In this document: positions 33,795 to 51,400 of the stretch, piece after piece | Layout of the letters: the number at the start of each line of letters is the position of its first letter | Position numbering within the stretch: position 1 is the first letter of the stretch | DNA from: Phytobacter massiliensis JC163 | Lineage (GTDB): Bacteria > Pseudomonadota > Gammaproteobacteria > Enterobacterales > Enterobacteriaceae | Direction of reading: 5' to 3' | Assembly (NCBI RefSeq): GCF_000321045.1 | Contig: NZ_HE578947.1 | Span: forward strand, 3,150-67,149 | Length of the DNA: 64,000 bases | Made by a program: the position numbers and the translations under genes | Notes under the pieces: model-generated | Told to the model about the DNA's origin: nothing | Seen by the model: only the letters and a program-made list of their open reading frames with translations | Database searches by the model: none

Positions 33795-34598
33795 ATGATG
33801 AACACGGTGGATGCCGCGATGCGCGAGCGTGTGATGCGGCAGTTAAAAGAGGTGGAGCAGCGTTTTGGCGTGCGGGTACTGTACGCCTGCGAGTCCGGCA
33901 GCCGGGGGTGGGGTTTTGCCTCGCCGGACAGCGATTACGACGTGCGCTTTTTGTATGTTCACCCGCCCGAGTGGTATCTGCGGGTGGAGGCGGCGCGGGA
34001 CGTTATCGAACTGCCAATAGATGATGAGCTGGACGTCTGCGGCTGGGAGTGGCGCAAGGCGCTCGGCCTGTTGAAAGGGGCCAACCCGACGCTTATCGAG
34101 TGGCTGGACTCGCCGGTGGTTTATCAGCAGGACGGCGCCACCGTGGCGGCGCTAAAAGCGCAGGTGCCTCGCTGGTTCTCCCCCGTGCGCGCCCGCTGGC
34201 ACTACTATTCGATGGCGCGCAAAAACTTTCGTAGCTATCTGCAGGGTGACGAGGTGCGGCTGAAAAAGTACTTTTATGTGCTGCGCCCTCTGCTGGCGGT
34301 GCGTTGGGTAGAGGCGGGTAAAGGCGTCCCGCCGATGCGTTTTGCCGAACTGCTGGCAGGTAGTGAACTGGACGCGCCGTTGCGCCGGGAAATCGACGAT
34401 CTGCTTGCTCGCAAACAGCGCGCCGGAGAGGCGGAGTATGGCCCGCGCCGCCCGCTGCTGCATGCTTTCCTGAATGCCGAACTGGCCAGGGGTGAGATCC
34501 CGCCCGTATTGCCGGACAGCAGGGAGGGAAATAGCAGCGAACTGGATAGTTTGCTGTATCAGACCGTTATGGCCCCGCAGTCCCCGGATGCGGCATAG
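33795..34598 (+). CDS. Pol-beta-superfamily nucleotidyltransferase, in the position normally held by rtcA
   Basis: It has the motif GSRGWGFASPDSDYDVRFLY (GS...D.D). It is 4 nt downstream of rtcB, and there is no RtcA-like ORF. Confidence 0.65.
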   Translation: MMNTVDAAMRERVMRQLKEVEQRFGVRVLYACESGSRGWGFASPDSDYDVRFLYVHPPEWYLRVEAARDVIELPIDDELDVCGWEWRKALGLLKGANPTLIEWLDSPVVYQQDGATVAALKAQVPRWFSPVRARWHYYSMARKNFRSYLQGDEVRLKKYFYVLRPLLAVRWVEAGKGVPPMRFAELLAGSELDAPLRREIDDLLARKQRAGEAEYGPRRPLLHAFLNAELARGEIPPVLPDSREGNSSELDSLLYQTVMAPQSPDAA

Positions 34599-34640
34599 CC
34601 TTATCCGGGCTACTCTTTGTAGCCCGGCTCGGTTTTAAGG
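34598..34640. repeat. REP-type extragenic palindrome
   Basis: gccttatccgggctac...gtagcccggctc. The reverse complement (gtagcccggataaggc) recurs near 57745. Confidence 0.5.
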
Positions 34641-35090
34641 GTGGTATTGCCCACTGCTGACCAGCGCGTAGAGGTGGTTCGGTGAGTAGCGCCAGCTCTC
34701 ATTAAGCCCCAGAAACGCCGCGCAAAACTCGCTGCAAAACAGCCTGTTGCGATGCTCTTTGTTGCCCAATACAATCCCCAGCGCTCCCTGCCAGTCGTAG
34801 CGTTTGCCGTCATGCTGGCGGAAAAACGCCTCCACTTCCGGCAGACTTGTCTGCAATGGCAGCTTATCCCACTTATCATCCGGCAACGGCATCAGCTTGC
34901 CGCGTACGCCGCGATCGCGAAACGAAGCCGAGTAACAGAGGTACTCATTTCCGCCGCGCGCCACGGCCAGTTCACAGTGGGAGTAGATCCCACGCGTGAT
35001 TTTGCGGGTCAGCCAGTCGGCAACCCTGGCAATGCCCCGGTGCTCCGCCCGCCCTTTATAGCAGGCGAGCCAGACGGTGGCGTTACTCAT
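34635..35090 (-). CDS. YiiX/YaeF-like permuted papain-fold (C92) hydrolase
   Basis: It has ...RLFCSEFCAAFL (like the YiiX LYCSELV catalytic-Cys block) and an upstream ...GIYSHCELAV (His block). It is 72 nt downstream of the tail-fibre gene on the same strand. Confidence 0.5.
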   Translation of the reverse strand: MSNATVWLACYKGRAEHRGIARVADWLTRKITRGIYSHCELAVARGGNEYLCYSASFRDRGVRGKLMPLPDDKWDKLPLQTSLPEVEAFFRQHDGKRYDWQGALGIVLGNKEHRNRLFCSEFCAAFLGLNESWRYSPNHLYALVSSGQYHP

Positions 35091-35161
35091 GGCTGCCAGC
35101 CTGGGGTGTAGTCGTAAAATGATTTTTGATTAAATATGATTCCATTTTATTTATCCTGTTA

Positions 35162-36835
35162 TTATACAGTAATGGCTTGTGGGCGAATTTCTCCATACAT
35201 ACCAGTGACTGCATTAGTGAAAAGCTGCCTTCCATATTCTTCAGGATCATCTTTTGACGCGGTAAATAAAATCTCTGTACCTATTCCTTCGATATCACAG
35301 GTGAAATTGATAGAGTTATATGTTCCCTCATTTAAATCTTTATAATTAGCGTAAGGATTTCGTATATTCTTTACTCTAGAGGTATTACCTATAGGGACTC
35401 GTTGGATTAACATGTTTGTAGTCAAATATTGATGGAGCACATCCGTTTTATCATGCTGTGCAGCATTGCATGTCCACCAAATTCCTGGTAAATAGGCAGT
35501 TGCATTCATGTTTTTACCCATGGAAAAGCCTGGCCCCGATAAAAAGCAGCAAGAGGATAAAGTACTGCCAGCTCTAATTTCGCCTTGCTTTATATCATCT
35601 ATTTGATTAAGACTTGATTGGGTATTCTTTATAAATGGAACAGTAGCTAAACAATACGCGCCATCCCCATTTACCTTAGGGTAAAGCCCCTTAATTTGAT
35701 CGGCAGTATGAGTATGATTCGCCGGTGCCGCCGCATTCGCCTTGTCCATCGCCGCTTTCACCGCGCTCGGCGTCGCCGCTTCGGTGGTGCTGGTGCTGTT
35801 AGTGGCATTATTCAGCTTCACCACCCCTTTCTGGGTCAGGGTGCCATCCGGTACGCCGGTGACCTGATTCCAGGGGTGGGTGTGGCTGGCCGGTGCGGCC
35901 GCATTCGCCTTATCCATTGCCGCTTTCACCGCGCTCGGCGTCGCCGCTTCGGTGGTGCTGGTGCTGTTAGTGGCGCTGTTCAGCTTCACCACCCCTTTCT
36001 GGGTCAGGGTGCCGTCCGGTACGCCGGTGACCTGATTCCAGGGGTGAGTGTGGCTGGCCGGTGCGGCGGCATTCGCTTTATCCATCGCTGCTTTCACCGC
36101 GCTCGGCGTTGCTGCTTCGGTGGTGCTGGTGCTGTTGGTGGCGTTGTTCAGCTTCACGATCCCTTTCTGGGTCAGGGTGCCGTCCGGCACGCCGCTTATC
36201 TGGCTCCAGGTATGGGTGTGATTACGCGCTTCGGCCAGCGCTGCTTTCACCGCTTTCGGCGTGGCGGCTTTGGTTTCGTCATCGCTGTTGGTGGCGTTGC
36301 TGAGCTGCGTAAAGCCTTTTTGCGTGAGCGTGGCGTCCGGGTGTCTGGTGGAGTGCTCGTGCTCATCCAGCAGCGAATCCACATAGTCGCGGGTTGCCAG
36401 CACCACGCTGGGGTCAACGGTCAGGGTGACCGCCGTGGTGTTGGACACTTCCATAATCAGACGAATGCAGACCTGCTTGCCGCTGCCGCCGGGCAACAGC
36501 GGCTTGTAGGACTCCGGGAACTTGCCGATGGCGATCAGATCGCCGTCGGTGTCGAATACCCCCACCTCGCGCACGTACCAGCCGCCGATGTTTTCCGGCA
36601 GTACTACTTCGGCAATCAGCCAATTGGGGTTATTGGGCGCGACCGTCAGGGTATTCATCTCACCGCGCCAGACTTCGCGACGTAATTTCGTCTGGTTAAC
36701 GGCAGGCTCATAATATTGCCCGCCGCCGTCGCCAACCGCCATCTTTTGCAGATGCAGCTGTTTTTTCTCCGCCAGCGCGGCGGCGATTTTCGCCATCCCC
36801 TTATTGGTCAGGAGAGTATAAAATTCATTATCCAT
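35162..36835 (-). CDS. phage tail fibre protein (P2 gpH-like N-terminus, repeat region, low-GC C-terminal receptor-binding domain)
   Basis: The N-terminus (...MAVGDGGG...WRGEMN...IAEVVLPENIGGWYVREVGVFD...ESYKP...HPDATLTQKGFTQLSNATNS) resembles P2 gpH. It has P2 fibre-repeat units TLTQKG.VKLN.ATNSTS..EAATPSAVKAA. Confidence 0.85.
   Translation of the reverse strand: MDNEFYTLLTNKGMAKIAAALAEKKQLHLQKMAVGDGGGQYYEPAVNQTKLRREVWRGEMNTLTVAPNNPNWLIAEVVLPENIGGWYVREVGVFDTDGDLIAIGKFPESYKPLLPGGSGKQVCIRLIMEVSNTTAVTLTVDPSVVLATRDYVDSLLDEHEHSTRHPDATLTQKGFTQLSNATNSDDETKAATPKAVKAALAEARNHTHTWSQISGVPDGTLTQKGIVKLNNATNSTSTTEAATPSAVKAAMDKANAAAPASHTHPWNQVTGVPDGTLTQKGVVKLNSATNSTSTTEAATPSAVKAAMDKANAAAPASHTHPWNQVTGVPDGTLTQKGVVKLNNATNSTSTTEAATPSAVKAAMDKANAAAPANHTHTADQIKGLYPKVNGDGAYCLATVPFIKNTQSSLNQIDDIKQGEIRAGSTLSSCCFLSGPGFSMGKNMNATAYLPGIWWTCNAAQHDKTDVLHQYLTTNMLIQRVPIGNTSRVKNIRNPYANYKDLNEGTYNSINFTCDIEGIGTEILFTASKDDPEEYGRQLFTNAVTGMYGEIRPQAITV
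35717..36220 (-). repeat. three tandem 168-bp (56-aa) repeats inside the tail-fibre gene, plus a degenerate fourth unit upstream
   Basis: The units HTHPWNQVTGVPDGTLTQKGVVKLN.ATNSTSTTEAATPSAVKAAMDKANAAAPAS are near-identical at the DNA level. The same relationship appears on the opposite strand as the RRRFGGAGAV runs in ORF 35696..36685. Confidence 0.85.
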
Positions 36836-36837
36836 AA

Positions 36838-37470
36838 TTACTCCGGGTAAATAGACGTAATTTCAAGGCTCCATTGCCCTGTGCCAAAATAAACTGGCTT
36901 AGTTTGTTGAACTTCCAGTACCTGGAAGGGTGAAATAGTGGTAATTTCGCCGCCAAAAAGGGCGCAGCCCAGTACCGGTATTGCGCTCTGGTTAATAATC
37001 CAGATAATCAGTGCTTCCAGCTTTGAACGCACATTTTTATATTCATGAATCAGCTCTACCAGATGATTAAAAAGCGGTTCATCGATGCCATTGTTAATAA
37101 GCTCAATTTCAATTTTGAAAAAATACGCTTTGCCACCGTATTCAAACCATTCGGCAATAGTGCCAGGTAACGATAATATCTCCAGCACGCGACGAACGGC
37201 CCAGGGCGTCCCTTTATATTTGTGCAGCTCAATGGCCTGCTTGATTAATTCCCGCTTCTCCTTTTCATTGCGGGCGAATAACCAGCCCTCCAGTCCCTGC
37301 ACATGAAACTGTTCGGCCAGCGAAGGCAGCGCAGAGGCGTCAACCAGATCCACCAGGTAAATAAGCAGCGCCGTCAGATCCATTTGTGCGAAGCGTTCGG
37401 CGGCGATGTTCGCCAGAAGCGAAAAGCGCTCATCGCGGGCAAGCGGCGGCGGCAGATGCAATTTATCCAT
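36838..37470 (-). CDS. phage baseplate/tail protein gpI-like
   Basis: It sits between gpJ and the fibre as in P2 (J-I-H). It is 210 aa, and its start overlaps the gpJ stop. Confidence 0.7.
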   Translation of the reverse strand: MDKLHLPPPLARDERFSLLANIAAERFAQMDLTALLIYLVDLVDASALPSLAEQFHVQGLEGWLFARNEKEKRELIKQAIELHKYKGTPWAVRRVLEILSLPGTIAEWFEYGGKAYFFKIEIELINNGIDEPLFNHLVELIHEYKNVRSKLEALIIWIINQSAIPVLGCALFGGEITTISPFQVLEVQQTKPVYFGTGQWSLEITSIYPE

Positions 37471-38475
37471 CGCTCACTCCGGCAATCGTCACGTCAATAA
37501 TGATGCATTCCGCCCATACATGCGCCAGCAGTTCACGTTTGGCAGGCTGTTCCAGCGCCACGTCGTAAACGCCATCCACCTGCAGCACTTTGATTATCTG
37601 ATTCGGCACAATATCCTGGCCGAGCCGCGTCTGGCGCTGCTGGGTCCATGCTTCAATTGCCGCGCGGGCGGCGGCAAGGGTGGCCGCCTGATCGGCATGG
37701 GTAAAGAGCGTCAGCCGGGCGCGAATCTGATAAGGCACCCGCGGCGGCAATTTGACGCTGACCTTATCGGTCAGCGGGCGCTTTTTGTCCTTGCCCACTT
37801 CCTGCTGAATTTGGGCAAGCAGTTCCGTCCCCGGCATGCCGTTCAGCGTCAGTGGATAGATCTCCACGCAGCCTTCCGGCAACCCTTCATCCGGCCCCAG
37901 TATCGCCACGTCGATAATTGACTGGCTGACGGAAAGCGTATGAAAACGGTATGCCCCGTAGCTGCCTGCGTTACTGAAACTTTCTGGTGCCAGCCTGATA
38001 CGCTCCCGCAGCGCGTCGTCGCTCTCTTCATCGCAACCGCCAGCCGAGGTCGTCAGGTTGGTTACCTTCACCGGATAGCTGCTGATCCTGTCCATCAGGG
38101 CGCTGATTTGCGCAGGTTCCCAGCCGTTGCCCGCTTCACCGGTTACAAGACAGGTGGCGGTGACAGCCGCCTCTGGCTTGTTGGGCAGAACCCTGACATC
38201 CTCTTCGCTGGCTGAGCGGGCAGGCGGTGAACGCCAACCAGTTCGCCTAAATAATCCAGCATGGGGGCGCGGGAATAGGCCACCAGGTTTTGCTTCGCCG
38301 CCTCCTGAATGGCGATGCGGACAAGGTTTTCACGATAGGCAATCAGGTCGATAAGCAGCCGCTCCGCCTGTGCCGGATAGAGTTTTTTACCGCTGGCCTT
38401 TTCATATTGCGCGATTATCTCGCTGGTAATTTGCGCGGGGTCGCGGTCGATAAAATCGGGTTCGGCTATCGCCAT
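37463..38475 (-). pseudogene. phage baseplate assembly protein gpJ-like; frame interrupted (ORFs 38143..38475 and 37463..38095, with a third frame carrying sense between them)
   Basis: The N-terminal ORF (MAIAEPDFIDRDPAQITSEIIAQYEK...LVGVHRLPAQPA) becomes nonsense after about residue 94. The C-terminal ORF (...ESFSNAGSYGAYRFH...) resembles P2 gpJ. Between them the frame ...VLPNKPEAAVTATCLVTGEAGNGWEPAQIS reads sensibly, which implies two single-nt gaps near G/C runs (about 38200 and about 38098). Confidence 0.7.
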
Positions 38476-38825
38476 AACACCTCCGTAGAGTTAATAACGC
38501 CGTCTGCGGCGCGCCATTGCACATGAAGCGTCAGGTGTTCGCCGTCAATCGTCGGCGTCACCTTGAGCAGGCGGCAACGTGGCTCCCACATGCGGATCGC
38601 CTCCACCGACTCCCGTACCACGTGCGGAATAGCTCGCTCGACGGGATAGTCGATATAGCGCCACAGGTTGCTGCCAAACAGCGGTCTGTGAGGATCGCTG
38701 CCGCGCGGCGTGCGCAGGATGATGTGTATTGCCTGATGAATATCGTCCAGCCCGCAGACATATTCTTCAGGGCGCTGCAGGGCAGGTTGCCAGTGCAGGG
38801 TTGAGGGTCGTGTTTTCGTGTTCAT
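38466..38825 (-). CDS. phage baseplate protein gpW/gp25-like
   Basis: 119-aa protein of GPW/gp25-family size. It is in the V-W-J order of a P2 baseplate module. Confidence 0.75.
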   Translation of the reverse strand: MNTKTRPSTLHWQPALQRPEEYVCGLDDIHQAIHIILRTPRGSDPHRPLFGSNLWRYIDYPVERAIPHVVRESVEAIRMWEPRCRLLKVTPTIDGEHLTLHVQWRAADGVINSTEVLWR

Positions 38826-39001
38826 GCGGCTATTTTCACCTCAACGGAGGCGGCGCGATATTAAAGCGCTTTAGGAAAGGAGTTGATTAAAGAGAGAAAA
38901 ATCGCCGCATCGGGCGTCCCGGATGCGCTTCGCTTATCCAGGCTACAGTTAGCGGCAGGAGGCGCACCCGGGAACCCCGGATACGCCGTGCGGCGGGTGG
39001 G

Positions 39002-39745
39002 TTAGTGAGAGTGGTGGTTTGAGTTGCCGCCGCTGTCCATAACTGAACCGCTGGCTTTTAGGTTGCCCTGAATATTAACGTTGCCGGTGATCACCGCACT
39101 GCTGCCAGCGCCGCTGCTGCCTGCCATGCCGCCAAGCCAGGTCAGTTTTTTCATCACCGTAACATTGCCGGTAAAGGTGCTAATCGGCGCATCCACCGTT
39201 ACATCCAGCGCTTTAATGCCGGTACGGGCAGCCTCCACGCTGACATCAACGGCCTGTACCGCCACCTGGCTTGCCTCCACGCTCACGTCAGTGGCCTTCA
39301 CGCTGACCGTCTCCGAGGTCACATTTACCTGTTGCGCTTTTACCTCCACCAGCGGCGAGGTGAGGCGGGTACTCTCTTTCACCTCAATCACTATCTTTTC
39401 GATACCGCCGTTGATGGTGAGCTGGTGCGATTGACGATCGTATTCAAAAGCCGCGCCGTCGGAAAAATGCACGTAGCGTTTGTCGCGCGAGGCCAGCGGC
39501 GCGGTGTCAACCGTGGAGTAAACCGCCCCCAGCACCACGCCGTCTTCACCGTTGTCATCAAGCAGAACCTCGACCTGTTCGCCCATATCCGGCAGCCAGT
39601 AGTCTTTGTTGTCCTGCGTATTGCGCTGCAGAACCGGCAGCCAGTTGCTTTGCAGATTATCGCACTCCGGCAGAGTAACCCTGACGAGAACCGTGGTCTC
39701 GTCGATGTCGCTGATAATTCCCGTCTGGCGGGTAACGCCTTTCAT
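39002..39745 (-). CDS. phage baseplate spike gpV-like
   Basis: It has an N-terminal OB-like domain followed by short V/S/T-rich beta-helix repeats (VNVTSETVSVKATDVSVEASQVAVQAVDVSVEA...) and a Gly-rich C-terminus with HHSH. Confidence 0.75.
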   Translation of the reverse strand: MKGVTRQTGIISDIDETTVLVRVTLPECDNLQSNWLPVLQRNTQDNKDYWLPDMGEQVEVLLDDNGEDGVVLGAVYSTVDTAPLASRDKRYVHFSDGAAFEYDRQSHQLTINGGIEKIVIEVKESTRLTSPLVEVKAQQVNVTSETVSVKATDVSVEASQVAVQAVDVSVEAARTGIKALDVTVDAPISTFTGNVTVMKKLTWLGGMAGSSGAGSSAVITGNVNIQGNLKASGSVMDSGGNSNHHSH

Positions 39746-39754
39746 GTCGTCTCC

Positions 39755-40795
39755 TTACTGGCTGGTCGCCGGTCCGCGTGAAATGTCGATTTCGGTGGTA
39801 TAGCCGCTGCGGGTAAATCGATGCATTGATTTATCAATCAGCCACTGGCCGGACAGAACGCCGAAGCCGGTCAGTTCGATTTTGTTCCCCGCGGTCAGCT
39901 GCGGGCAGCCCATCAGGCTCAGCGTGCCGGTCTGCTGATACTCGTTATGGCTGTCCAGCGCGGCGTTGGCTTTCGCCTGCGCCGCGCCGGTATCGGGCGC
40001 GCGGCTGTTGAGCTTGAGAGTATCGGCGCTGGTTGCCGCCCCCCTGGCCGACGGTTTTTGCTGGCTATCGTGGGTATAAATAACCAGCTCCTTTTTCTTG
40101 CCGTTTTGATGTTGTACGGTGGCGTTCTTATAGATCCGGTTGATGGTATCGTTAAAGGTGTAATGGCCGATATCCGTCCGATCGAGGGTTTTCACCGGCG
40201 CAAGGCAGCGCAGCGAAGGCAGATGTGAAAAGACAAGCTCCGCCGCCGTCACCTTGACGGTGTAGCCGTACTCACTGGCCAGACGCTTGAGAAACGCAAT
40301 ATCGGTTTCCGCGTACTGCGTTACCCGGTCAATGTTCAGGGTAGCGATGTGCCCCACCAGCTTTAAGCCGTGCTTTTGCGCAATACGGCTGGCGATGGCG
40401 GCAAGGGTGGTCTCTTCAAACCCCTCGCTGTTTCTGGTGCGCAGCGCTTTGCTGACCGAGGTGGCGATGCCGTCAATATTCACCGTGGACGGCGGCGCGC
40501 TGATATCAATTTTATCAATGATATAGACGCCGCAATCCAGCAGTTCCTCCCCCTGGTAGCCCAGATGCAGGGCAAGGGTATCGCCTTTGCCGGGATACCA
40601 TTCGTTCACCCAGCGGCCTTCGCTGTCTTCCAGCGTAATGGCGATAACATCCGACTCGTTCTTGATGCTGTCGCTGTAGCTGATGCTAGTGACATAAGGG
40701 GCGATATCGTAAGTAATATCCTTATGCCCGTACCAGAGCGTAAAAATGGGCGTTAGCGTGGCACAGACGCCGCCGGACAGGGTTATCTCAGCCAT
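39755..40795 (-). CDS. phage late-control gene D (gpD)-like tail protein
   Basis: 346-aa protein. It is in the tape measure (gpT)-U-X-D order. Confidence 0.7.
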   Translation of the reverse strand: MAEITLSGGVCATLTPIFTLWYGHKDITYDIAPYVTSISYSDSIKNESDVIAITLEDSEGRWVNEWYPGKGDTLALHLGYQGEELLDCGVYIIDKIDISAPPSTVNIDGIATSVSKALRTRNSEGFEETTLAAIASRIAQKHGLKLVGHIATLNIDRVTQYAETDIAFLKRLASEYGYTVKVTAAELVFSHLPSLRCLAPVKTLDRTDIGHYTFNDTINRIYKNATVQHQNGKKKELVIYTHDSQQKPSARGAATSADTLKLNSRAPDTGAAQAKANAALDSHNEYQQTGTLSLMGCPQLTAGNKIELTGFGVLSGQWLIDKSMHRFTRSGYTTEIDISRGPATSQ

Positions 40796-40992
40796 GGCGC
40801 CAGCTCCGTTGTGGTCTGCGTGGCGCGCACGACAGGGATGATTAACCGTACGCCGGACGGCAGCACCGCCGTGATGGCAACATGAGGATTCGCGGCGATA
40901 AGCCGCTCATAGGCGAGGGCGTCGCCATAGTAGCGCCAGGCGAGGTTGTCCCAGCGCTCCCCCTCTGTGGTGATGTGTTCAAGGTAGCGCAT
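40783..40992 (-). CDS. phage tail protein gpX-like (LysM-like)
   Basis: 69-aa protein with ...WDNLAWRYYGDALAYERLIAANPHVAITAVLPSGVRLIIP, which fits the P2 gpX pattern (...ICVRYYG...LAANPGL...LP.G..). Confidence 0.75.
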   Translation of the reverse strand: MRYLEHITTEGERWDNLAWRYYGDALAYERLIAANPHVAITAVLPSGVRLIIPVVRATQTTTELAPWLR

Positions 40993-41945
40993 TACACCCT
41001 CCTCGTGACGATCGCGGCGGCGATAAGGCTGGTCGCCGTGGTGGTTTTTTGCACGCTGTTACGCGCCTCGTTGACCTGCGAAGCGGCGTCGTTGAAGAGG
41101 GCTTCCGCCGCGCTTTGCTTGAAGGTGTCAAACAGCGATTTGGCATGTTCAAGCAGCGTGGTCGCGTCGTGGGCGCAGTCACGGATGCCCGGCAGGCTGT
41201 CGATCAGCGCCTGGATTTGCGCGGAGAGCGCGGCAGGCATTGCCGCCAGCGTTTGTAAATCCAGCGGCTGGCGCAAAAGCGCCTCCGTTGCGTCGATGAT
41301 TTTTTTCAGCGTATTGATGGTGTTGATGCACTTCTCTTTCAGCGCCTTCGCCTCCTTTATCAAATCTTTTGCCTGCGCGACCATTTTTTTGGCCTCCTCA
41401 ATGGCGTCGGCTATATCGTCCATCATCGCTCTGGCGTCGCGCATTCCGTCTTCGATGGTCTTCATCAGGTCATCGAACCAGCTGTCGCCAAGCCGCGGGA
41501 AATCCTGCCACTGCTCATCAATATTTGGGTCCTGCGTTGAGACTGCGGGCGGCAACAGCGGGCTCTTCGGGTTACCGGTGTACTCCTGCAGCGACAGGCT
41601 ACCGCTCTGGGCAATCACGTTGCCGTAAGGATCGGTGTGCTGGTGGGTAGCCGTCAGGTCGGTTATCACGAACCAGCCGCGGTAATCGCCGTTGCCAAAC
41701 ACCAGCGCCATCGCCTGATGCGCGGTCATGGCTTGCCGCAGGCGGTTCAGCTCCGCTGTCGGCTGACAGTACTGGCTGTGGAAACTGAACTGCAGCGTAA
41801 TTTTGTCCAGCTTGTCGCCGATAAACTGCACCCCTGGTTTACCTTCGATACGGGCATGAGAGGCGTAATCCACGCCCATTGTGTTTTCGAAGCCGTCCCA
41901 GTAAGCAACGACCTCAAACTCTATTTCTCCTAATACGGCATACAT
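40992..41945 (-). CDS. phage tail protein gpU-like with a C-terminal coiled-coil extension of about 160 aa
   Basis: The N-terminal roughly 150 aa are gpU-like (...GKPGVQFIGDKLDKITLQFSFH..., ...GWFVITDL...). The C-terminus is rich in A/E/K/L heptads. Confidence 0.6.
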   Translation of the reverse strand: MYAVLGEIEFEVVAYWDGFENTMGVDYASHARIEGKPGVQFIGDKLDKITLQFSFHSQYCQPTAELNRLRQAMTAHQAMALVFGNGDYRGWFVITDLTATHQHTDPYGNVIAQSGSLSLQEYTGNPKSPLLPPAVSTQDPNIDEQWQDFPRLGDSWFDDLMKTIEDGMRDARAMMDDIADAIEEAKKMVAQAKDLIKEAKALKEKCINTINTLKKIIDATEALLRQPLDLQTLAAMPAALSAQIQALIDSLPGIRDCAHDATTLLEHAKSLFDTFKQSAAEALFNDAASQVNEARNSVQKTTTATSLIAAAIVTRRV

Positions 41946-44272
41946 CAGGCGTACCCCCGGCGCTGTTGCTGCGCCATCACATCGTTAATCATTTTTTCCA
42001 GCTGGTGTTTATTCAGCGCCAGCACCTTGTTGACCTCTCCGGCGGCATTCGCGCCGTTCCCCTGGACGGTGACCTGCGGCGAAAAATGAACCTGTACATT
42101 CCCCTGAGCGCGCGGCGGCAATACCAACGGTTTCGCAGCGGTTTTTGGCGGTACGCTAAGAGGGGAAGGTGTGACAGGCGATTTCGCCCCTGTCGCGAGT
42201 GGCGGAGGAACCGGGCCAGCCAGCGCCATTCCGGCGACGCCCGGCATTATTGCAGCGCCCTGTGGCTCAACGCTGATGCCAATAACTTTCTTCAACCAGT
42301 CCGGGATATAGCTTTTTATCTTGCTGAACACCTCCCCCAGAACGGGGAATGCCTTCACCAGGCTGTTAACCAGGCTACTTATCATTTTGCCGCCGAATTC
42401 GCTAAAGCTGGCAGGCAGGTCAATGCCGAGCCAGCTCATCAAACCGGCGAACGCTTTGTAAAATATGCCCAGCGGCGACCAGTCGAGAATGAACGCCGTA
42501 ATGCCCAACACACCGCCAGCAAAGATCTCTTTGATGCGCTCCCAGAGTCCCAGAAAGAACTTTTTAATCGGCTCAAAATAGCGGTAAATCAGCAATACCG
42601 CGCCGACGATGACGGAGATAATGCGGCCCAGGGGCGTCATGAGCAGGAAACGGAGAACCCAGCGTCCCAGCGTCATAAAAACTCTGCCCAGCCCTTTTAG
42701 TCTGCTTCCCAGTTGCAGAAAGCCTCTGCCCAGCCCTTTCAGCCAGCCACCCACTCTCGACAGACCGCCGCCTAGCCCTTTCAGCGCGTTCCATGCTTTC
42801 CCGATGGCGCCGCTCAGGGCCAGGCGGGCTTTTAATTTGAGGAACAGATCGATCAGGCGAATAATTGGCGAGGCGACAAGGTTCGCTCCCAGCTTCAGGA
42901 CGCTGAGCGCGCCGTTGAACAGCCAGATTGCGCCGATAAATTTGGCGATGCCCTGTACCAGCGCCGGGTTATCACGCAGCCAGGCGCTGAACTGGCGAAT
43001 AAGCGGGGTAAGGCTTACCGCCAGATCGCCGATCGCCGGCATGAGCTGCAGGCCGACGGTGAGCCACAGATCGTTGAGCGCCAGCTGCAACGCTTTGGTC
43101 TGCTCAAGGGGAGAGGACATCCTGGTGGTGAAATCGCTGTCCAGCATGGTGCTCTGCCCGGCCTGCATATTAGACGTTTTCAGCTGCTGAAATTCGCCGC
43201 TGTTCGCCAGCATCGGCGCGAGGAAATCCAGCGTTTGCCTGTCGCCGAACATCTCGCCGAGATTAAATTGCGTGACCAGAGCCTGTAGCGCATCTGCCCG
43301 GGCGCTAAGATCGTCAATTTTCATGGCCTGCTTAAACTGGTCGAGGATCAGCGGGTTCATTTTCTGCAGCTGCATTTCGACGATATGGGCCATGGCCTGC
43401 GCCACGCCCAGGCCGTTTTGTTGGTGCTCCAGCAGCGAGCCCCGCAGATCCACCCCCTGGCTGGCAAACCAGTTATCCGTCTTCCTGGAGAAGGTGGTGT
43501 GCAGGAAATGGGCGAAATTATCCTCCGCAGCGGCAGCGCTGGGGGCGTTTTGCATCGCGATTTGCTGTGTCGCCGCCAGTTCCGCAAGCCCCTCTGTTCC
43601 CTGCGCGCCTGTCCGCGCGGCAAAGCGTTCAATCCACAGGGTTTGATCGGCCACGGAGACGCCGCCGTTCTTCGCGACGTCCGCCAGCATCGTCTGCGCG
43701 ACGTGGAACGCTTGCGGAGCAATATGCAACTGGTTGCGGGTCGAGATGGCCGCCTGCGCCCAGGTTTGCGCGCTGTCGCGGGTGGCGGTGGCGGCTTTGG
43801 CGATGTCGGGCATATAGCGGTTGAGCTCATGCAGGGAACGGATTCCGCCTTCCATCATCGTGGTGGCGGCATCCTGCAGGGCCAACTGATCCTGATTGAA
43901 ATCGAGGCTCCAGTCGCGCAGATTCAGGCTCAGAGCGTCGCGTGTATCGTCATCCATGTCGTTTTTGATGGCCATATTGACCATGCCGTCCTGAAACTCG
44001 AAGGGCAGCCGCCAGTCTGGCTGCTCTACCAGCAAAAGTTTGCCCATCTGACTGATAAATGTGCGGGTTTCGGTGAGCAAGGCTTCACGACGGTTGCTGT
44101 TTTCTTCCCGGCGTAAGGCGGATGCCGTTAGCTGCTGTGTAAGTCTGGTGATTTTTTCATGCTCAGTGCTGAGCGATTGTAACTGGCGGGCGTTACGTGA
44201 GCCGTTACGGGCAATTGCCTGCGTCAACGTCTCATTACGCGCCTGTAGCTGGGTCATAATGTCGTTGGCCAA
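41945..44272 (-). CDS. phage tail tape-measure protein
   Basis: 775-aa protein with an alpha-helical/coiled-coil N-terminus, a Gly-rich hydrophobic central region (...LKGLGGGLSRVGGWLKGLGRGFLQLGSRLKGLGR...), and a position between gpE/E' and gpU. Confidence 0.85.
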   Translation of the reverse strand: MANDIMTQLQARNETLTQAIARNGSRNARQLQSLSTEHEKITRLTQQLTASALRREENSNRREALLTETRTFISQMGKLLLVEQPDWRLPFEFQDGMVNMAIKNDMDDDTRDALSLNLRDWSLDFNQDQLALQDAATTMMEGGIRSLHELNRYMPDIAKAATATRDSAQTWAQAAISTRNQLHIAPQAFHVAQTMLADVAKNGGVSVADQTLWIERFAARTGAQGTEGLAELAATQQIAMQNAPSAAAAEDNFAHFLHTTFSRKTDNWFASQGVDLRGSLLEHQQNGLGVAQAMAHIVEMQLQKMNPLILDQFKQAMKIDDLSARADALQALVTQFNLGEMFGDRQTLDFLAPMLANSGEFQQLKTSNMQAGQSTMLDSDFTTRMSSPLEQTKALQLALNDLWLTVGLQLMPAIGDLAVSLTPLIRQFSAWLRDNPALVQGIAKFIGAIWLFNGALSVLKLGANLVASPIIRLIDLFLKLKARLALSGAIGKAWNALKGLGGGLSRVGGWLKGLGRGFLQLGSRLKGLGRVFMTLGRWVLRFLLMTPLGRIISVIVGAVLLIYRYFEPIKKFFLGLWERIKEIFAGGVLGITAFILDWSPLGIFYKAFAGLMSWLGIDLPASFSEFGGKMISSLVNSLVKAFPVLGEVFSKIKSYIPDWLKKVIGISVEPQGAAIMPGVAGMALAGPVPPPLATGAKSPVTPSPLSVPPKTAAKPLVLPPRAQGNVQVHFSPQVTVQGNGANAAGEVNKVLALNKHQLEKMINDVMAQQQRRGYA

Positions 44273-44368
44273 AGTAAATTCTTCCGTTTGATGGCCCGGC
44301 GGCAGGCTTTCTTGAAATGGCAGAGAAGGGGCAGGAAACCGGGCGTAAGGTTGGGAGACCCGCAGGCG

Positions 44369-44575
44369 TTACGCCTGCGAATCGTATTCGTGTTTTATCT
44401 GGGTGTTCGCTTCGTCCAGCCAGCGGGTGAAATCCTCAACCGCCAGGGCATCGATCTCACTGGGCGGAAAGCGAAACCATCTCGCCAGCAGCGCCATTGC
44501 CTGCCATAGCTGCGGCGGATTCTGTAGCCATACCGAGCATGGCCTGAAATCGCTTTTGCAGCGCCTGATAATCAA
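44369..44575 (-). CDS. gpE' -1-frame extension region (probable programmed frameshift product E+E')
   Basis: The -1 frame continues past the gpE stop and reads ...WFRFPPSEIDALAVEDFTRWLDEANTQIKHEYDSQA. Tail-chaperone frameshifting is conserved in this gene arrangement. Confidence 0.5.
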   Translation of the reverse strand: MIIRRCKSDFRPCSVWLQNPPQLWQAMALLARWFRFPPSEIDALAVEDFTRWLDEANTQIKHEYDSQA

Positions 44576-44774
44576 GCAGATCCATTTCCGCCAGGTCCTC
44601 CTGTACCAGGCCGGTCATGGCCGCCATCAGCGGCTCGTCCCACTCCTCCGGCTTGTCGCTGGCGCGTCGCGCATTACGCATGTCTTTTACTTTCAGGCGG
44701 CGCAGCGTCAGGGTTTCAATATGTTCGCCCGCCGCAGAGGTAAACGGGAATTGCAGAGTATATTTTTCGCTCAT
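44457..44774 (-). CDS. phage tail assembly chaperone gpE-like
   Basis: 105-aa protein between the tube and tape-measure genes. It overlaps the -1-frame ORF 44369..44575, which looks like an E' extension. Confidence 0.7.
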   Translation of the reverse strand: MSEKYTLQFPFTSAAGEHIETLTLRRLKVKDMRNARRASDKPEEWDEPLMAAMTGLVQEDLAEMDLLDYQALQKRFQAMLGMATESAAAMAGNGAAGEMVSLSAQ

Positions 44775-44815
44775 TTTATTATCCTTTTAATTTCGGGGCC
44801 GCAGCCCCGAATAAA

Positions 44816-45340
44816 TTAGCCGCCGATATTGTTACGGTAAGCCGTTAATTGATCTTCGCCATTTACGCGGAAGATATTCGCCAGATAATCCAGTTCGAGC
44901 AGCGTTTCGCCGTCTACAACCTGTTTGATATAGGTGCAGCCGAAGGCGCTACTGAATTCCGGGTTTTCATTCTGTTTAAACGTGCCCAGCGGATTCTTTT
45001 TAAACATCACGGTCATATGGGTGACCAGCGCCAGCTGATCGGCCCGACCCTGAGAGTTATAGCAGTCAACGTTTGAGCGGCACTGTAATGCCACGGCCTG
45101 CCACGGGTTGGCGGTTTTGCGCATGACATCGTGGTAAAACACGTTCCATTTGATTTCGCCTTCCAGCTTATCAAACCCGGCGGGCAGCTCGATCTTACCC
45201 ACCATCCCCAGCGCTTTATGCTCCTGCATAATCAGGCTAATATCCGGCAGTTTAATTTCGCTGGCGCGCCCTAACAGGTTATTGCCATCAAGATAAATAT
45301 TGGCGTTGGTAATACGGTTAATTTGAATTTTTCCGGCCAT
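44816..45340 (-). CDS. phage major tail tube protein (gpFII-like)
   Basis: 174-aa protein. It follows the sheath gene with a 1-nt overlap. Confidence 0.85.
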   Translation of the reverse strand: MAGKIQINRITNANIYLDGNNLLGRASEIKLPDISLIMQEHKALGMVGKIELPAGFDKLEGEIKWNVFYHDVMRKTANPWQAVALQCRSNVDCYNSQGRADQLALVTHMTVMFKKNPLGTFKQNENPEFSSAFGCTYIKQVVDGETLLELDYLANIFRVNGEDQLTAYRNNIGG

Positions 45341-46776
45341 TAGCTATTGCTCTCCAGAGAGACTAAATATTCAGAGGTAATTTCAGTTTCAAATGTCAGA
45401 CGTTCCAGCGGCGGCGGCGGCGTAAATTTGTAGTTAAGCAACAAATGACCCGCCGCCAGCTCCGTTTGTGAATTTCGCGCCGGGTCATACCAGCATTCGA
45501 AGCCCAGCAGCGCGCCATCGGCAATAAGCTTGCGCCCCCAGCCGTTCACTGATTCCGTCAGCGCGTCGATCAGCGCCTGGTTAATCGGCATATCCATAAA
45601 CTGCTGGCTGAAATAACGGATGGATTCATTAATCACATCGCCGGTACGCCGCACGTTTTCAAAGTTACGCATATGGGTCACGGTCGGCCAGGCGGCGGTG
45701 CGGTTGCCCCACAGGCGGTAGCCGGAACCGTAGCTGTTGAAAACAGTGGTGATGCCATTCTCATTCAGCAGGTTCACTTCGCTTTGCGGATCGTCAATCA
45801 TCGCCGACAGCGAACGCTCAACGCCGGTAATACCCTGGATCTCCTGATTGGAATTACTCCACCAGAATCCCTTTTCAATATCGACTTTGGCGCGCAGGCC
45901 CGCAGCGCGGGAAGAGAGCGGCTCCAGCACCTCGCTATTGGTTTCGCTGTTGAACGCTTTCACGTGCGGATAGCACAGGCGAGCGCGATCGGAACTGGTG
46001 TTGAAGTTGATCGTGCCTTTCGACCCGCGGCCCGCCAGCACCTGCTGGAAGGTGGTGCCGACAGGGGCGTCAATATAGGTAATGGCCCCCAGCTTTTCCG
46101 CCTGAGTGATGAGTTCAGTCGCCACGGTTTTTTGCGTACAGAAGACCGGCGCCAGCAGGATTTTGGGATAAAAACCGTACTGGGTATAGATATCCTGCAG
46201 GAGCTTCATCCCGGTGCGATCGCCCGCGGCGTTGATAGCGCCAATGATTTCCGACGCGGTAATTTTAGTTGGGTCGGTATAGGTAACGTTGGCGTAAGCC
46301 TGCGAGTTGGGTGTTAATGCGCCATTAAGGCAGGTCACTTCGCCAGTGAGCATATCCACGGTGTAATCCGTGCCCAGCACATAAGGCGAGCTGCCGTTAG
46401 AGCCACGGCTAATCACTACCGTTTGATAAGCCTTATTATTCGGCTGAATCTTCGCTTTTCCGTCCGCGTCAAAGCGAAGACTGATATTAGCGGTGACTTT
46501 ATGGAGAACAGGGCTGAGGACGTTAATAACAACGACCGTGCCTGCGCCGTGATCGTAAATGGCTTTCAGCGCTTGCGGAATGGTGAAGTTGGAAACATTT
46601 GCGCCAAACTGCGCCGCATCGCTTTCTGATAAGCACAGCGTCGGCTGGTTAACCGGGCCGCTTGGGGCGGTGCCGATCAGGGCAATAACGGCGGATTTTA
46701 CCGCTTTAATAGGACGCGGGCCGGTTTCAATTTCAATGGTTTCTACACCGTGCAGGTAATTAGCTGCCATGTACAA
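45340..46776 (-). CDS. phage contractile tail sheath protein (gpFI-like)
   Basis: 478-aa protein with the sheath-family C-terminal block (...GYRLWGNRTAAWP...). Confidence 0.9.
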   Translation of the reverse strand: MYMAANYLHGVETIEIETGPRPIKAVKSAVIALIGTAPSGPVNQPTLCLSESDAAQFGANVSNFTIPQALKAIYDHGAGTVVVINVLSPVLHKVTANISLRFDADGKAKIQPNNKAYQTVVISRGSNGSSPYVLGTDYTVDMLTGEVTCLNGALTPNSQAYANVTYTDPTKITASEIIGAINAAGDRTGMKLLQDIYTQYGFYPKILLAPVFCTQKTVATELITQAEKLGAITYIDAPVGTTFQQVLAGRGSKGTINFNTSSDRARLCYPHVKAFNSETNSEVLEPLSSRAAGLRAKVDIEKGFWWSNSNQEIQGITGVERSLSAMIDDPQSEVNLLNENGITTVFNSYGSGYRLWGNRTAAWPTVTHMRNFENVRRTGDVINESIRYFSQQFMDMPINQALIDALTESVNGWGRKLIADGALLGFECWYDPARNSQTELAAGHLLLNYKFTPPPPLERLTFETEITSEYLVSLESNS

Positions 46777-46963
46777 TTTCCTCTTCTTCTTCTGTAATTT
46801 CTGCCGCTTCGGTAATGACCGGCGTTAAATGACCGCGAGCAATCATGGTCATGACCCACTCGTTGTCCTCCGGCAGGGAGACTTCGCTGTCGGTCCACAA
46901 TAAAAGCTCTTCGCCATCGGCAAGGGTGACGCCGCTTGCCGGGCCGCTATAGATATATTTCAT
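46760..46963 (-). CDS. small acidic tail-module protein of unknown function
   Basis: 67-aa protein with a run EEEEEI. It is translationally coupled (ATGA overlap upstream, 17-nt overlap with the sheath gene). Confidence 0.45.
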   Translation of the reverse strand: MKYIYSGPASGVTLADGEELLLWTDSEVSLPEDNEWVMTMIARGHLTPVITEAAEITEEEEEIVHGS

Positions 46964-47412
46964 TGAATTTCCTCATAGTTAACGATGGTCAGCAGAGGGA
47001 GATCCTTGCTTTCCTGATTGGCGATAAACAGGGCGCTGGACGCCATTTCCAGGGCGTAACAGGCAAAGCCCGCGTTATTGCCGATGAACGTTTCGCTCTT
47101 CATCCACAGCAGGCGATCGCAGCCGGGAAGGGCGATACCGCCCAGCGTCTGGCGGGTCCGATCCAGGGCGTTAAGCGCATCAGCCTGCGGCGCGATGACG
47201 GTCGCGGTGAAATGGAGAGTCCGCCTCTGCACCACGGCGTCTGTGCTTTCGGTTGCCGCAAAATCGGCGCCGCTGTAATGAATGAGTACCGCCGGGCGGT
47301 TATTAAGCGGGATATAATCCGTTGCACTTTGCGTGGAAATAGATACATCCATATCCGGATTTAATTCGCGCAGATATTCCATCAGCGCCGTAATAACAGC
47401 TGAGGTTTCCAT
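46960..47412 (-). CDS. putative tail completion / sheath-terminator protein (DUF1834/gp37-like)
   Basis: 150-aa protein, the first gene of the tail operon upstream of the sheath gene. The family assignment is tentative. Confidence 0.4.
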   Translation of the reverse strand: METSAVITALMEYLRELNPDMDVSISTQSATDYIPLNNRPAVLIHYSGADFAATESTDAVVQRRTLHFTATVIAPQADALNALDRTRQTLGGIALPGCDRLLWMKSETFIGNNAGFACYALEMASSALFIANQESKDLPLLTIVNYEEIQ

Positions 47413-47638
47413 TTGGTGTTCTCCTTACTCTTTCACGGAGAATCACATTTCCTCTCCGTCACAGTTCGGGAGTATTCTGGCGTGATGGCGCGGTGAATGC
47501 TTTTAATCTGCTTTAAAGAAAAAAGTTAAAAGAAATAAAAAATCCCCGGCGTATTTACGACGAGGATTTATACCCTAAATAATTCGAGTTGCAGGAAAGC
47601 CAACGCTCATGCAACTTGAAGTATGACGGGGATTTAGG

Positions 47639-47953
47639 TTATGCACCTCCACGTTGGATCAATTCTATCTTGCTATATAGCGCATCCAGTTTGGCTTCTA
47701 TTACCGCCTGGCCGCGTAAATAATCTTCCCGGCGAACATAATGCAGCGGAAGATCGGCTCTGAATTCCAGAAATTCTCGTTCCAGCCTTGACCAGCCTAT
47801 TTCTGACTCCCGGCGGGCTATTTCCAGGGCTTCAAAGCGTTCGCTCAACCGCTTCTCTATTTGCGCCAGCAGCAGTTTACCGGCGGCAAACAGCAGCCCA
47901 ACAAAGGAGAGCAAGAGGGAGATAATTTCCCAGAAATCGATGCTGAGTTTCAT
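47639..47953 (-). CDS. type II membrane coiled-coil protein, putative i-spanin-like lysis accessory protein
   Basis: It has an N-terminal TM (IISLLLSFVGLLFAAGKLLL) followed by a charged coiled-coil. It lies directly downstream of the endolysin gene. Confidence 0.45.
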   Translation of the reverse strand: MKLSIDFWEIISLLLSFVGLLFAAGKLLLAQIEKRLSERFEALEIARRESEIGWSRLEREFLEFRADLPLHYVRREDYLRGQAVIEAKLDALYSKIELIQRGGA

Positions 47954-47966
47954 TGGCCTCCTCTGA

Positions 47967-48572
47967 TTACTGAATGCAGCTGGCGTGCCCCCACTGCAAA
48001 TAGCGGGCGGCGTGCTGGTATAAAATCACTTTTGGATAGTGACGGTTTTCCCGCCAGTTGGCGGCGCTGCGCCCGGCGTTGACCCGTTCCACATGATCAA
48101 ACCAGACTGTTGAATCAAGCCCTTTGGCGGCTGCCAGCTTTTTATCGCGGTTAACCCAACCCTGGCCGCCGTTATAGGCGCTAAGGGTAAAGGCCATACG
48201 CTGACAGCTGTCTTTCGCCGTGATGCCGCGCCAGAGTTGACGGTCGTACTGCACCAGCGCGCGTATCGCCCAGACCGGATTGAACGGCTTGTTTTCCCGT
48301 AGCTGCGGATAGAGCTGGCTTACCCATTGCGCTGTTGCAGGCATAAACTGCGCCATTCCCTGCGCGCCGACCGGCGAACGGGCCGCCGGGTTCCAGCCCG
48401 ACTCCTGATGTAACTGCCCGGCAAAATCAGCCACCGGGGCATTTATCCCCCAGATTTCGCGGGCGGTACGGATCAGTTCATTGCGCCATTTTAACGCTGC
48501 ACGCGGCGGTTCGGCGGCGTTGGCTGACAGGGCTAACATCCACAGCAGACAGATGCATGAACGCCACATCAT
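47967..48572 (-). CDS. phage endolysin, lytic transglycosylase (SLT domain) with a signal peptide/SAR N-terminus; start taken at MMWRS
   Basis: It has the SLT motif ...ESGWNPAARSPVGAQGMAQFMP.TA... and the signal-like MMWRSCICLLWMLALSANA. Its start overlaps the holin stop. Confidence 0.8.
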   Translation of the reverse strand: MMWRSCICLLWMLALSANAAEPPRAALKWRNELIRTAREIWGINAPVADFAGQLHQESGWNPAARSPVGAQGMAQFMPATAQWVSQLYPQLRENKPFNPVWAIRALVQYDRQLWRGITAKDSCQRMAFTLSAYNGGQGWVNRDKKLAAAKGLDSTVWFDHVERVNAGRSAANWRENRHYPKVILYQHAARYLQWGHASCIQ

Positions 48573-48859
48573 TACAGCCCCAGCGCGACGGCAAGGCAGA
48601 CGGCGGCCACAATGACGGCGCGACGGATCATCGCGGCGGCGCAGCATACCGACTCCTGCCACGGGCAAAAAGAGTCCGGACGGGCCCAGGGAAAAAGGCT
48701 GCGATCGAGCCAGTAGCCTAATACTGCCGACAGCGATACCAGACTGAGCTTATAGATGACGACCGGAATTTGCGCTGACGAAACCCAGCCAATAAGCGTG
48801 AAAAGAATAGCCGAGGCGACCAGCCAGCCGGAGAGGCGGGGGAAGCATGTTTTTTTCAT
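48572..48859 (-). CDS. putative holin (3 TM)
   Basis: 95-aa protein with three hydrophobic segments. It is immediately upstream of the endolysin and overlaps it. Confidence 0.5.
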   Translation of the reverse strand: MKKTCFPRLSGWLVASAILFTLIGWVSSAQIPVVIYKLSLVSLSAVLGYWLDRSLFPWARPDSFCPWQESVCCAAAMIRRAVIVAAVCLAVALGL

Positions 48860-49179
48860 ATGTATCTCCTGATAAACGGGAGACGAGTATGGGGTTTGCC
48901 GCGATCGTTAAAACGAAAAACGGTTTAATAAATAAGTTTAAAAAATGTATTTCCCCGTATCCCGCTAACGCAAGGCGATAAGACGAAACAGGAGAACAGC
49001 AACCGGCGATGATGGCTTGCCAGCAGGCTGTGCTGTTTGGGGGAAGAAGGCGGCGAAGAGGGCAGGAGCAAAAAAGAGGCTGTGTTTATATGATTGATTT
49101 TTAAAGTTTGTTTAATGAATTTCACCGCTGTGACGGCAACGATCTTTTTTGATCGCGCGCAGAAAAAAGCGTAAAAAAT

Positions 49180-49199
49180 TACTGTATATGCATACAGTA
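49180..49199. promoter_or_regulatory. LexA (SOS) box
   Basis: tACTGTatatgcatACAGTa is a perfect CTGT-N8-ACAG palindrome. It lies about 230 nt upstream of the Mor-like gene. Confidence 0.75.
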
Positions 49200-49429
49200 A
49201 TGTGTAAAATGGGGCCATCAGAAAGAGACCGCTCTGCCTGTAAAATATATTCAAATTGTGAATTAGAAATGTATTAAACATTTTTCTCTGAAATAATTAT
49301 TCCATCAGGGAAGTGTTATTTATTCGAATTATGAATGTATTTGCGGTTAGTTAACGCACCTGTTTTACGCGCTCCCTTTATACAGGCGATTCCGGGCAGC
49401 ACGGGGTGCAGGATATATGGAGATAACTT

Positions 49430-49777
49430 ATGATTCAAAAATCAAAAGAAACAGTTCGGGTGCCGGAGATCATCAGCGATCTGGCCTTTCACGCGTCGCA
49501 AATCCTTATTGAAAGCATGAATGTCGACAGCGCATCGGCAGAGAATGTCGGCCATGCCATCGCGGATCGGATGATGCGCAACTGGGGCGGGCAAAGCATC
49601 TACTTTCCAAAAGGGGTTTCAAGCCGGGCCTCCGAGCGGGATTACCAGATTTATGAAGAGTGTAATGGCCGCAACTATGCGGAGCTGGCAAGGAAGTATA
49701 AATTGACGCTGCAATGGATCTATAAAATTGTGAAGCGGGTGCATACCGAGAAACAGCACCAGCGGCGGATGCTGTAA
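49430..49777 (+). CDS. Mor/C-family phage late-transcription activator
   Basis: 115-aa protein with a C-terminal HTH (...YAELARKYKLTLQWIYKIVKRV). It is divergent from the lysis/tail operons. Confidence 0.7.
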   Translation: MIQKSKETVRVPEIISDLAFHASQILIESMNVDSASAENVGHAIADRMMRNWGGQSIYFPKGVSSRASERDYQIYEECNGRNYAELARKYKLTLQWIYKIVKRVHTEKQHQRRML

Positions 49778-51166: not shown

Positions 51167-51189
51167 AACGACCTCGTGTCAGGGAAAGA

Positions 51190-51400
51190 AAAACGCGACC
51201 TGAGCACAAGGGCAGAAAAGAAACCGGTGCAGGCGCAAATACCGTATTTATAAATAAAATGTGTGACTGATACTGTCAACGCCGGGATTATGCGGATTTT
51301 TCATGCTGGGAGCAGGGGTAGTAATGGTGCTTATATGCTGGCGTTAAACGCTATACTTTTTACCCGTGTTTGATCGATGCGCAGGGAACGGCATTAAAAC
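51190..51400 (-). ncRNA. lysC 5' leader containing the lysine riboswitch (LYS element)
   Basis: The roughly 300-nt leader is conserved. Its end (CCCUGACACGAGGUCGUUAUG on the minus strand) matches the E. coli lysC leader end. I did not verify the riboswitch core motifs. Confidence 0.5.

Follow-up and report, generated by a model that had tools for sequence, protein, structure and literature searches.

A palindromic LexA (SOS) box that lies between divergently oriented genes for a holin and a Mor-family activator (hereafter mor) in Phytobacter massiliensis JC163 is probably a working operator for the host LexA repressor, making mor inducible by DNA damage, with the Mor protein then activating the late operons of an R-type tailocin. 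The window—that is, the whole stretch of 64,000 nucleotides (nt) analysed here, positions 3,150 to 67,149 of contig NZ_HE578947.1—contains the CTGT-N8-ACAG core of the box once, in an AT-rich divergent intergenic region of 570 bp, 230 nt from the ATG of mor (49430, + strand) and 320 nt from that of the holin gene (48859, − strand). In the undamaged cell, LexA on the box would block RNA polymerase at the overlapping A/T-rich promoter-like sequences, with the most likely target being a + strand promoter that uses a conserved TAAAAT 5 nt downstream of the box. Upon RecA-stimulated self-cleavage of LexA, mor would be transcribed with a leader of about 210 nt, and Mor dimers would switch on the promoters of the tail and baseplate operons, and probably that of holin, such that tails are assembled and the cell lyses. 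The cluster has no repressor of its own, and the SOS signal would be read through host LexA.

An earlier note, made from the letters of this DNA alone, had placed a perfect LexA box with the CTGT-N8-ACAG core at 49180-49199, in the AT-rich region upstream of the Mor-family gene. The sequence there is exactly as stated, and the setting was borne out; perfection holds for the core and both 8-nt arms, but not for the centre, where two mismatches (GC for AT) leave 18 of the 20 positions identical to the consensus TACTGTATATATATACAGTA. The recA box of Escherichia coli K-12, read directly, is TACTGTATGAGCATACAGTA, from which the window box likewise differs at two central positions. The core alone is not significant, with 0.52 occurrences expected by chance per window and at least one found in 42 of 100 shuffled sequences. 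For the full 20-mer, by contrast with the core, a match to the consensus with two or fewer mismatches was reached by none of the 100 shuffles.

Conservation across orthologues is stronger evidence for the box than these chance statistics. Orthologous loci were gathered from E. coli, Superficieibacter, IMG/VR contigs, and Logan/ENA contigs; a scan of genome contigs by exact peptides gave two loci, and most of the diversity came from viral contigs, Logan contigs, and E. coli genomes. The box was found in 15 of 16 distinct holin–mor intergenic regions, 221–232 nt from the mor ATG (293 nt once, where there is an insertion) and 299–350 nt from the holin ATG. A scan of viral contigs with a Mor alignment recovered it 221–246 nt upstream (once 293 nt) at every one of the 22 loci with a Mor at least 83% identical, and it is also present in the window and in the E. 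coli, Superficieibacter, and metagenomic loci. Over all loci fetched, the box takes the form of 15 distinct 20-mers; all of them share CTGTAT...ACAG, and the six positions in the centre are free, with hexamers that include ATGCAT, GTAAAA, ATTTAT, GTGTAT, ACACAT, and ACGTAT. When 15 distinct orthologous intergenic regions are aligned, sliding 20-mers have a pairwise identity of 0.96 at the box, against 0.50 over the region as a whole. Such fixed arms around a variable centre are to be expected under selection for LexA contact, and not from recent common descent. With its core set in a 20-bp palindrome and its arms constrained while the centre varies, the box shows the sequence and conservation features of the gammaproteobacterial LexA box class.

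That the box might instead be a chance palindrome, a functionless decaying relic, or the site of a protein other than LexA is most improbable in the light of these comparisons. The expected frequency of the core, the loss of the box from some lineages, and a decayed version at an orphan Salmonella locus would all be in keeping with such an origin, but the 15 variants keep invariant arms over several genera and in many flank contexts, no shuffled sequence attains the 20-mer match, and no alternative repressor is encoded in the cluster.

Within E. coli, the mor/box region is present in 196 of 5426 complete genomes (~3.6%) at the same chromosomal site, where it is unannotated; the cluster occupies this site in several other genera too. 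Twelve E. coli genomes match it at two places, suggesting a second copy of the element or of the regulatory module. In E. coli FDAARGOS_497 (L004:1-1267), an ISEcp1 insertion truncates the tape-measure gene, so that the tailocin is probably dead; the regulatory region is intact.

The earlier note had allowed that the box might belong to a divergent promoter unrelated to mor. When this was examined, the evidence favoured mor: the spacing between box and mor is nearly constant, whereas the sequence between box and holin varies in both length and composition. Furthermore, at three loci (L108-L110; L108:253-1000) with a Mor identical to that of the window, the tail and lysis genes are gone, leaving only RlaP, 750 bp, mor, and lysC. 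With neither a holin gene nor any other leftward gene present, the box is kept there as AACTGTATATAAATACAGTA, followed by TGTAAAAT, with a different spacer and a diverged flank. Retention of the box where mor is present and the holin and tail genes are lost indicates that it belongs to mor. In Salmonella enterica (L018:908-1297 and L019; cluster P0003, with 332 member sequences), an orphan mor likewise lies beside lysC, with a decayed box that reads AACTTGTTAAATAAATGTTA.

Both strands carry promoter-like hexamers that overlap the box, and on both the conserved decamer that adjoins it contributes to them. On the + strand, the decamer contains the −10-like TAAAAT (49205-49210), directed towards mor, with a poor −35 inside the box. 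On the − strand, it provides a −35-like TTTACA (49208..49203), separated by 16 nt from a TACAGT (49186..49181) inside the box. A consensus promoter scan of the intergenic region found the − strand site alone. A sigma-70 matrix, made from approximate frequencies, scored the + strand site at 7.3 bits and the − strand site at 8.5 bits, values that were indecisive as to direction; other AT-rich pseudo-sites are not conserved in position. In one group of loci (L034-L036), the box ATCTGTATATTTAYACAGCA is shifted relative to its flanks and lies ~20 nt farther from mor (~246 nt upstream). The + strand TAAAAT still abuts the box in these loci, with the TAAAAT-containing motif GTGATTAAAATGG located upstream instead of downstream of it.

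These hexamers also bear on the idea that the box controls, mainly or additionally, a leftward promoter, either gating holin and lysis directly through a long leader or forming part of a bidirectional SOS promoter. The − strand site is the only one returned by the consensus scan and has the top matrix score in the intergenic region; it is conserved in most lineages, and four box-less lineages carry a − strand TATAAT (three of them) or TAATAAT (the fourth) at the same position. Nevertheless, leftward control is unlikely, given that the distance and sequence from box to holin are highly variable, that holin has a conserved proximal island of its own, that the box persists where there is no holin or leftward gene to serve, and that the − strand site falls to 4.4 bits in L034-L036. 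In addition, direct LexA control of lysis, ahead of Mor-dependent tail synthesis, would waste the cell.

Candidates for a function of the long leader between box and mor did not hold up. Open reading frames (ORFs) that start from a conserved ATG vary in length and sequence and have no ribosome-binding site, single-sequence folds of a possible hairpin are weak and not conserved, and no RNA family in Rfam matched the leader at E ≤ 1.

The predicted second step, from Mor to the late operons, rests on a shared element found upstream of the tail and baseplate genes (Table 1). A TTCTCTAAAGCAGATTAAAAGA-like sequence occurs upstream of gp37 in all lineages, downstream of the terminator of the lysis cassette, and in the window the segment 47499-47520 matches the element on both strands, forming a 22-bp quasi-dyad. 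An equivalent of the window's terminator-like stem-loop (AATCCCCG...CGGGGATTTTTT) is present in other lineages; since the terminator separates the lysis and tail units, the tail operon would need an activator-type promoter of its own. A late-promoter matrix was built from seven enterobacterial gp37-upstream sites only. Its top match in a related phage (L022) falls in the gap between mor and holin, with a score of 21.9 (the next being 4.8), and its top match in L106 falls in the region between mor and gp37, with a score of 21.0 (next 8.0). The second-best match in the window, at 15.1, is the baseplate site (38857-38878), which recurs at the same place in E. coli and viral loci.

In the tail, baseplate, and phage holin promoters, and likewise at L106, a −10-like hexamer (CAGAAT, GAAAAT, or TAGCAT) stands exactly 19 nt downstream of the element, and there is no −35; the hexamers of the tail and baseplate operons are weak. 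With this spacing, the element would be centred on the position of the Mor/C target: the hexamer 19 nt downstream places it at about −53 to −32, which is where Mu Mor and C bind at the promoters that depend on them. In silico, the sites accordingly show the Mor/C-type arrangement of a dyad near −43 and a −10 without a −35.

The position upstream of holin is less clear. The conserved AT-rich island there is probably part of the holin/lysis promoter, and its position relative to holin is that of the element in phage L022. When it was considered as a late-promoter element, it scored 15.0 in the + orientation and 7.9 in the − orientation and was rejected as a full match, its half-sites being separated by 13 bp where the element has 10 bp, and a −10 being absent at the 19-nt distance. 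Because the match is partial, control of lysis by Mor rests on positional homology with the phage promoter. A motif shared by the holin-upstream and tail-operon-upstream regions, for which the earlier note had suggested a scan, was thus recovered in full for the tail operon (47499-47520) and in part for holin; the baseplate-operon copy lay outside the regions listed in that note. As for the cascade from SOS to Mor to lysis and tail genes that the note had proposed, comparative evidence backs the steps from LexA to mor and from Mor to the tail and baseplate operons, with the lysis branch resting on positional homology.

At the baseplate site, GAAAAT ends 6 nt short of the W ATG (window 38823-38837), with no Shine-Dalgarno sequence, and the E. 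coli locus is arranged alike; the W mRNA may be leaderless, or the W start codon may be misplaced. Several matches to the late-promoter pattern with 2–3 mismatches also occur far from the tailocin, in AT-rich DNA at 9642-9825 and 16183-16216, and are probably an effect of composition.

A further copy of the late-promoter element upstream of mor hints at autoregulation by Mor. In the window, it matches the pattern with two mismatches, with scores of 6.6 (+ strand) and 12.3 (− strand). In a box-less lineage (L020), the same element scores 17.1 on the + strand and is followed after 18 nt by TACGAT, and in box-less lineages generally it is the best-conserved block of the region. The transcription start predicted from it, near 49150, would place the LexA box at +31 to +50. 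Through this element, ~60 nt upstream of the box, Mor would boost its own transcription, with LexA at +31 to +50 acting as an additional brake.

Taken further, this arrangement could mean that LexA acts not by occluding a sigma-70 promoter but as a downstream roadblock on a Mor-autoregulated mor promoter, with SOS freeing an all-or-none positive feedback. The element, with its AACGAT or TACGAT at 18–19 nt, does stand upstream of the box, and it is the most conserved block (17.1) where the box is missing; we nonetheless regard this mechanism as very unlikely. In the + orientation, the element of the window and that of E. coli score weakly, and L033 and L108, with a degenerate element, keep the box. 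Moreover, a purely autoregulated promoter needs another source of the first Mor molecules, and a repressor that sits far downstream of a start site usually blocks transcription weakly. A combined scheme is unlikely in our judgement but would accommodate both promoters: LexA would block an ignition promoter and also, from +31 to +50, the Mor feedback promoter, yielding a two-key, all-or-none switch that fires only in cells with sustained SOS. In addition, orphan mor would be an SOS-responsive activator retained by the host and working in trans, such that the LexA-controlled mor of tail-less strains (with a decayed box throughout Salmonella) acts on other Mu-type elements or on host genes.

Occlusion of a mor promoter at the box by LexA, which we prefer to these schemes, has its own difficulties. 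The mor ATG lies 230 nt away from the box, and by a matrix of approximate frequencies the − strand TTTACA-16-TACAGT outscores the + strand site (8.5 versus 7.3 bits). Downstream of the box, several lineages have stronger sigma-70-like sites within the AT-rich leader, such as TTGACA-19-TATATT in E. coli; were mor in fact transcribed from one of these, its promoter would escape occlusion by LexA. In the window, the + orientation score of the element upstream of mor is no more than 6.6. The holin-upstream island fits the late-promoter element only in part, so that control of lysis by Mor is tentative even at the level of sequence. Finally, the box is missing from four lineages whose cluster and mor are intact, and it is therefore not indispensable.

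These four tailocin lineages (L020/21 and L050-L052), with Mor proteins 75–81% identical and a complete cluster, keep the late-promoter-like element as TTTTTTGAAATTTGTTTAAAAGA, followed by TACGAT (L020:2496-3000 and L050-L052, with mor at 2501). A conserved block, TTCAATGAATGG..ATGATG, is also common to them at ~200 nt from mor on its upstream side and could serve some other regulator as its operator. Among BcepMu-like phages, the box was found at none of 55 loci with collinear GemA and Mor (~50% Mor identity, mor following GemA on the same strand); the phages L022-L024 lack it as well. Since the phage relatives lack the box, the operator was acquired in the tailocin lineage along with domestication, as mor was inverted and moved off the early operon. 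In a high-GC, Burkholderia-like locus of tailocin type (L106:1781-2821), mor points away from gp37 and sheath, and no lysis cassette intervenes; this locus has the same 22-bp late-promoter element and no LexA box.

Tailocins induced by SOS and run by an activator are already known, and what appears to be new here is a host LexA operator in place of an RdgA- or PrtR-like repressor. Carotovoricin is a Mu-type tailocin without a repressor in its cluster and under SOS control (PMC13566846). The predicted logic of the cluster described here is the same, an SOS signal leading through a Mor-family activator to tail and lysis genes, with no repressor inside either cluster. In Pectobacterium carotovorum, RecA, RdgA, and RdgB reportedly control carotovoricin, pectin lyase, and lysis, with the activator RdgB said to be Mor-like and checked by RdgA, a cleavable cI/LexA-like repressor encoded next to rdgB. 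RdgA reportedly links RecA to the activator in that system, whereas the present cluster lacks such a gene and has a canonical operator for host LexA in its stead.

In the case of the pyocins, DNA damage removes PrtR, the repressor of the activator PrtN, which turns on tail and lysis genes (PMC12297226; PMC5411513). The two-step cascade from damage to activator to tail and lysis genes is thus alike, but the pyocin repressor is the cluster-encoded, LexA-like PrtR, whereas host LexA is predicted to act here, on an activator of the Mor family. PrtN is not known to be a member of that family. The earlier note had remarked that other tailocins reach the same outcome with different regulators; this overlooks carotovoricin, whose activator RdgB is reported to be Mor-like itself. 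No gene for a cleavable repressor of the RdgA/RdgB or PrtR/PrtN type was found between RlaP and lysC in the window, nor in the annotated E. coli cluster.

The late-gene cascade of phages Mu and BcepMu provides a homologous activator, together with homologous holin, SLT, Gp37, sheath, and tube proteins, and the same promoter element is found upstream of holin in phage L022. In these phages, however, the early operon ends with mor, which follows GemA and is under the control of the phage repressor, whereas the tailocin mor is inverted, stands alone, and has a LexA operator. Direct repression by host LexA is itself familiar from the colicin operons, comprising effector and lysis genes, and from the tum antirepressor of phage 186. 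There, too, host LexA serves as the direct switch for a costly function, with no SOS sensor encoded by the element; LexA controls effector and lysis genes or an antirepressor in those systems, but is predicted here to control the activator of several late operons.

A search of the literature found no paper on this wiring or on the regulation of this enterobacterial cluster, and the literature searched contained no experimental report of particle production or killing by it. The "tailocin" of E. coli ST131 (PMC9205054) was considered as the same cluster and rejected, s2-ST131 being a P2-like prophage with head genes. That paper contains no regulatory analysis, and accession numbers of the present cluster are absent from its supplements.

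Tailocins are under development as precision antibacterials and shape competition among gut Enterobacteriaceae. If correct, the proposed wiring would amount to a minimal, portable control logic, in which a single host operator and a single small activator are combined with a defined late-promoter element of 22 bp. It would also explain how a phage remnant without a repressor is kept silent and how it is tied to DNA damage, and it would imply that carrier strains release tailocins and lyse when exposed to quinolones or other drugs that induce SOS. The locus would then be a clear case of regulatory domestication, from a repressor-controlled mor in an early operon to an inverted, LexA-controlled mor, with lineages lacking the box and strains with an orphan mor available as natural variants for comparison.

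Coordinates of the features discussed are collected in Table 1. The mor-like protein matches the Pfam Mor family (PF08765) over its full length (E=7e-40, profile positions 2-105 of 107) and, among structures, Mu Mor (1RR7, E=1.8e-9) and Mu C (9L0X, E=7e-7), in agreement with membership in the Mor/C family. Of annotated phage proteins, BcepMu gp01 is the closest, at 52.6% identity, and the homologue in phiE255, a BcepMu-like phage, is annotated as "RdgB". Among the lysis genes, matches were obtained to Pfam Holin_2-3 (E=5e-27) and SLT (E=6e-15), with the syntenic E. coli genes annotated alike. The tail gene set comprises Gp37, sheath, tube, chaperone, tape measure, gpD, gpV, W, J, I, and tail fibre; a 151-amino-acid ORF in the same block has no Pfam match. 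No head, terminase, integrase, replication, or repressor genes were found in the RlaP–lysC interval of the window, as examined by Pfam and the ORF map, or in the annotated E. coli cluster. By gene content, this is a headless, repressor-less R-type tailocin-like cluster of ~15 kb, derived from a Mu/BcepMu-type phage. Its neighbours in the window are RlaP (33795..34598) on one side and lysC, then pgi, on the other; in E. coli it lies between yjbD and lysC.

Table 1. Positions of the box, promoter-like elements, and genes in the window
Feature	Position	Strand	Details
LexA (SOS) box	49180..49199	.	TACTGTATATGCATACAGTA (= tACTGTatatgcatACAGTa); direct reading of the window
Conserved decamer adjoining the box	49202..49211	.	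GTGTAAAATG; invariant in nearly all box-bearing lineages
Putative Mor-dependent mor promoter	49097..49143	+	ATTTTTAAAGTTTGTTTAATGA (49097-49118), 19 nt, −10-like AACGAT (49138-49143)
mor-like gene	49430..49777	+	115 amino acids; sole regulator of the cluster; ribosome-binding site GGAG 49419-49422
Holin-proximal conserved AT-rich island	48923..48947	−	CTTTAATAAATAAGTTTAAAAAATG (+ strand letters); highest intergenic conservation, 0.98
Lysis cassette	47639..48859	−	Holin 48572..48859; SLT lytic transglycosylase 47967..48572; 104-amino-acid membrane protein 47639..47953
Terminator-like hairpin and T run between lysis cassette and tail operon	47535..47568	−	Direct reading
Late (putatively Mor-dependent) tail-operon promoter	47474..47520	−	TTCTTTAAAGCAGATTAAAAGC (47520..47499), 19 nt, CAGAAT (47479..47474)
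Second putative late promoter, upstream of baseplate W gene	38832..38878	−	TTTCCTAAAGCGCTTTAATATC (38878..38857), 19 nt, GAAAAT (38837..38832)
Tail structural genes	34635..47412	−	Pfam, ORF map, and annotation of the syntenic E. coli cluster

Adjoining the tail-fibre end of the cluster (29406-34598) is a unit of RNA-repair type, with a gene for RtcR, a sigma-54 activator, on the − strand, followed by slipin/Band_7, RtcB, and RlaP genes on the + strand; at the equivalent position in E. coli, slipin and nucleotidyltransferase genes alone remain. At the other end, a search with Rfam did not detect a lysine riboswitch upstream of lysC in the window (51167-51470) or in L001, L002, L018, L020, and L025, which are Superficieibacter, Salmonella, and Enterobacter-type loci. 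An E. coli locus (L003) has a clear lysine riboswitch, at 99.5 bits, and the lysC–pgi spacer is ~220 nt shorter in the window than in E. coli.

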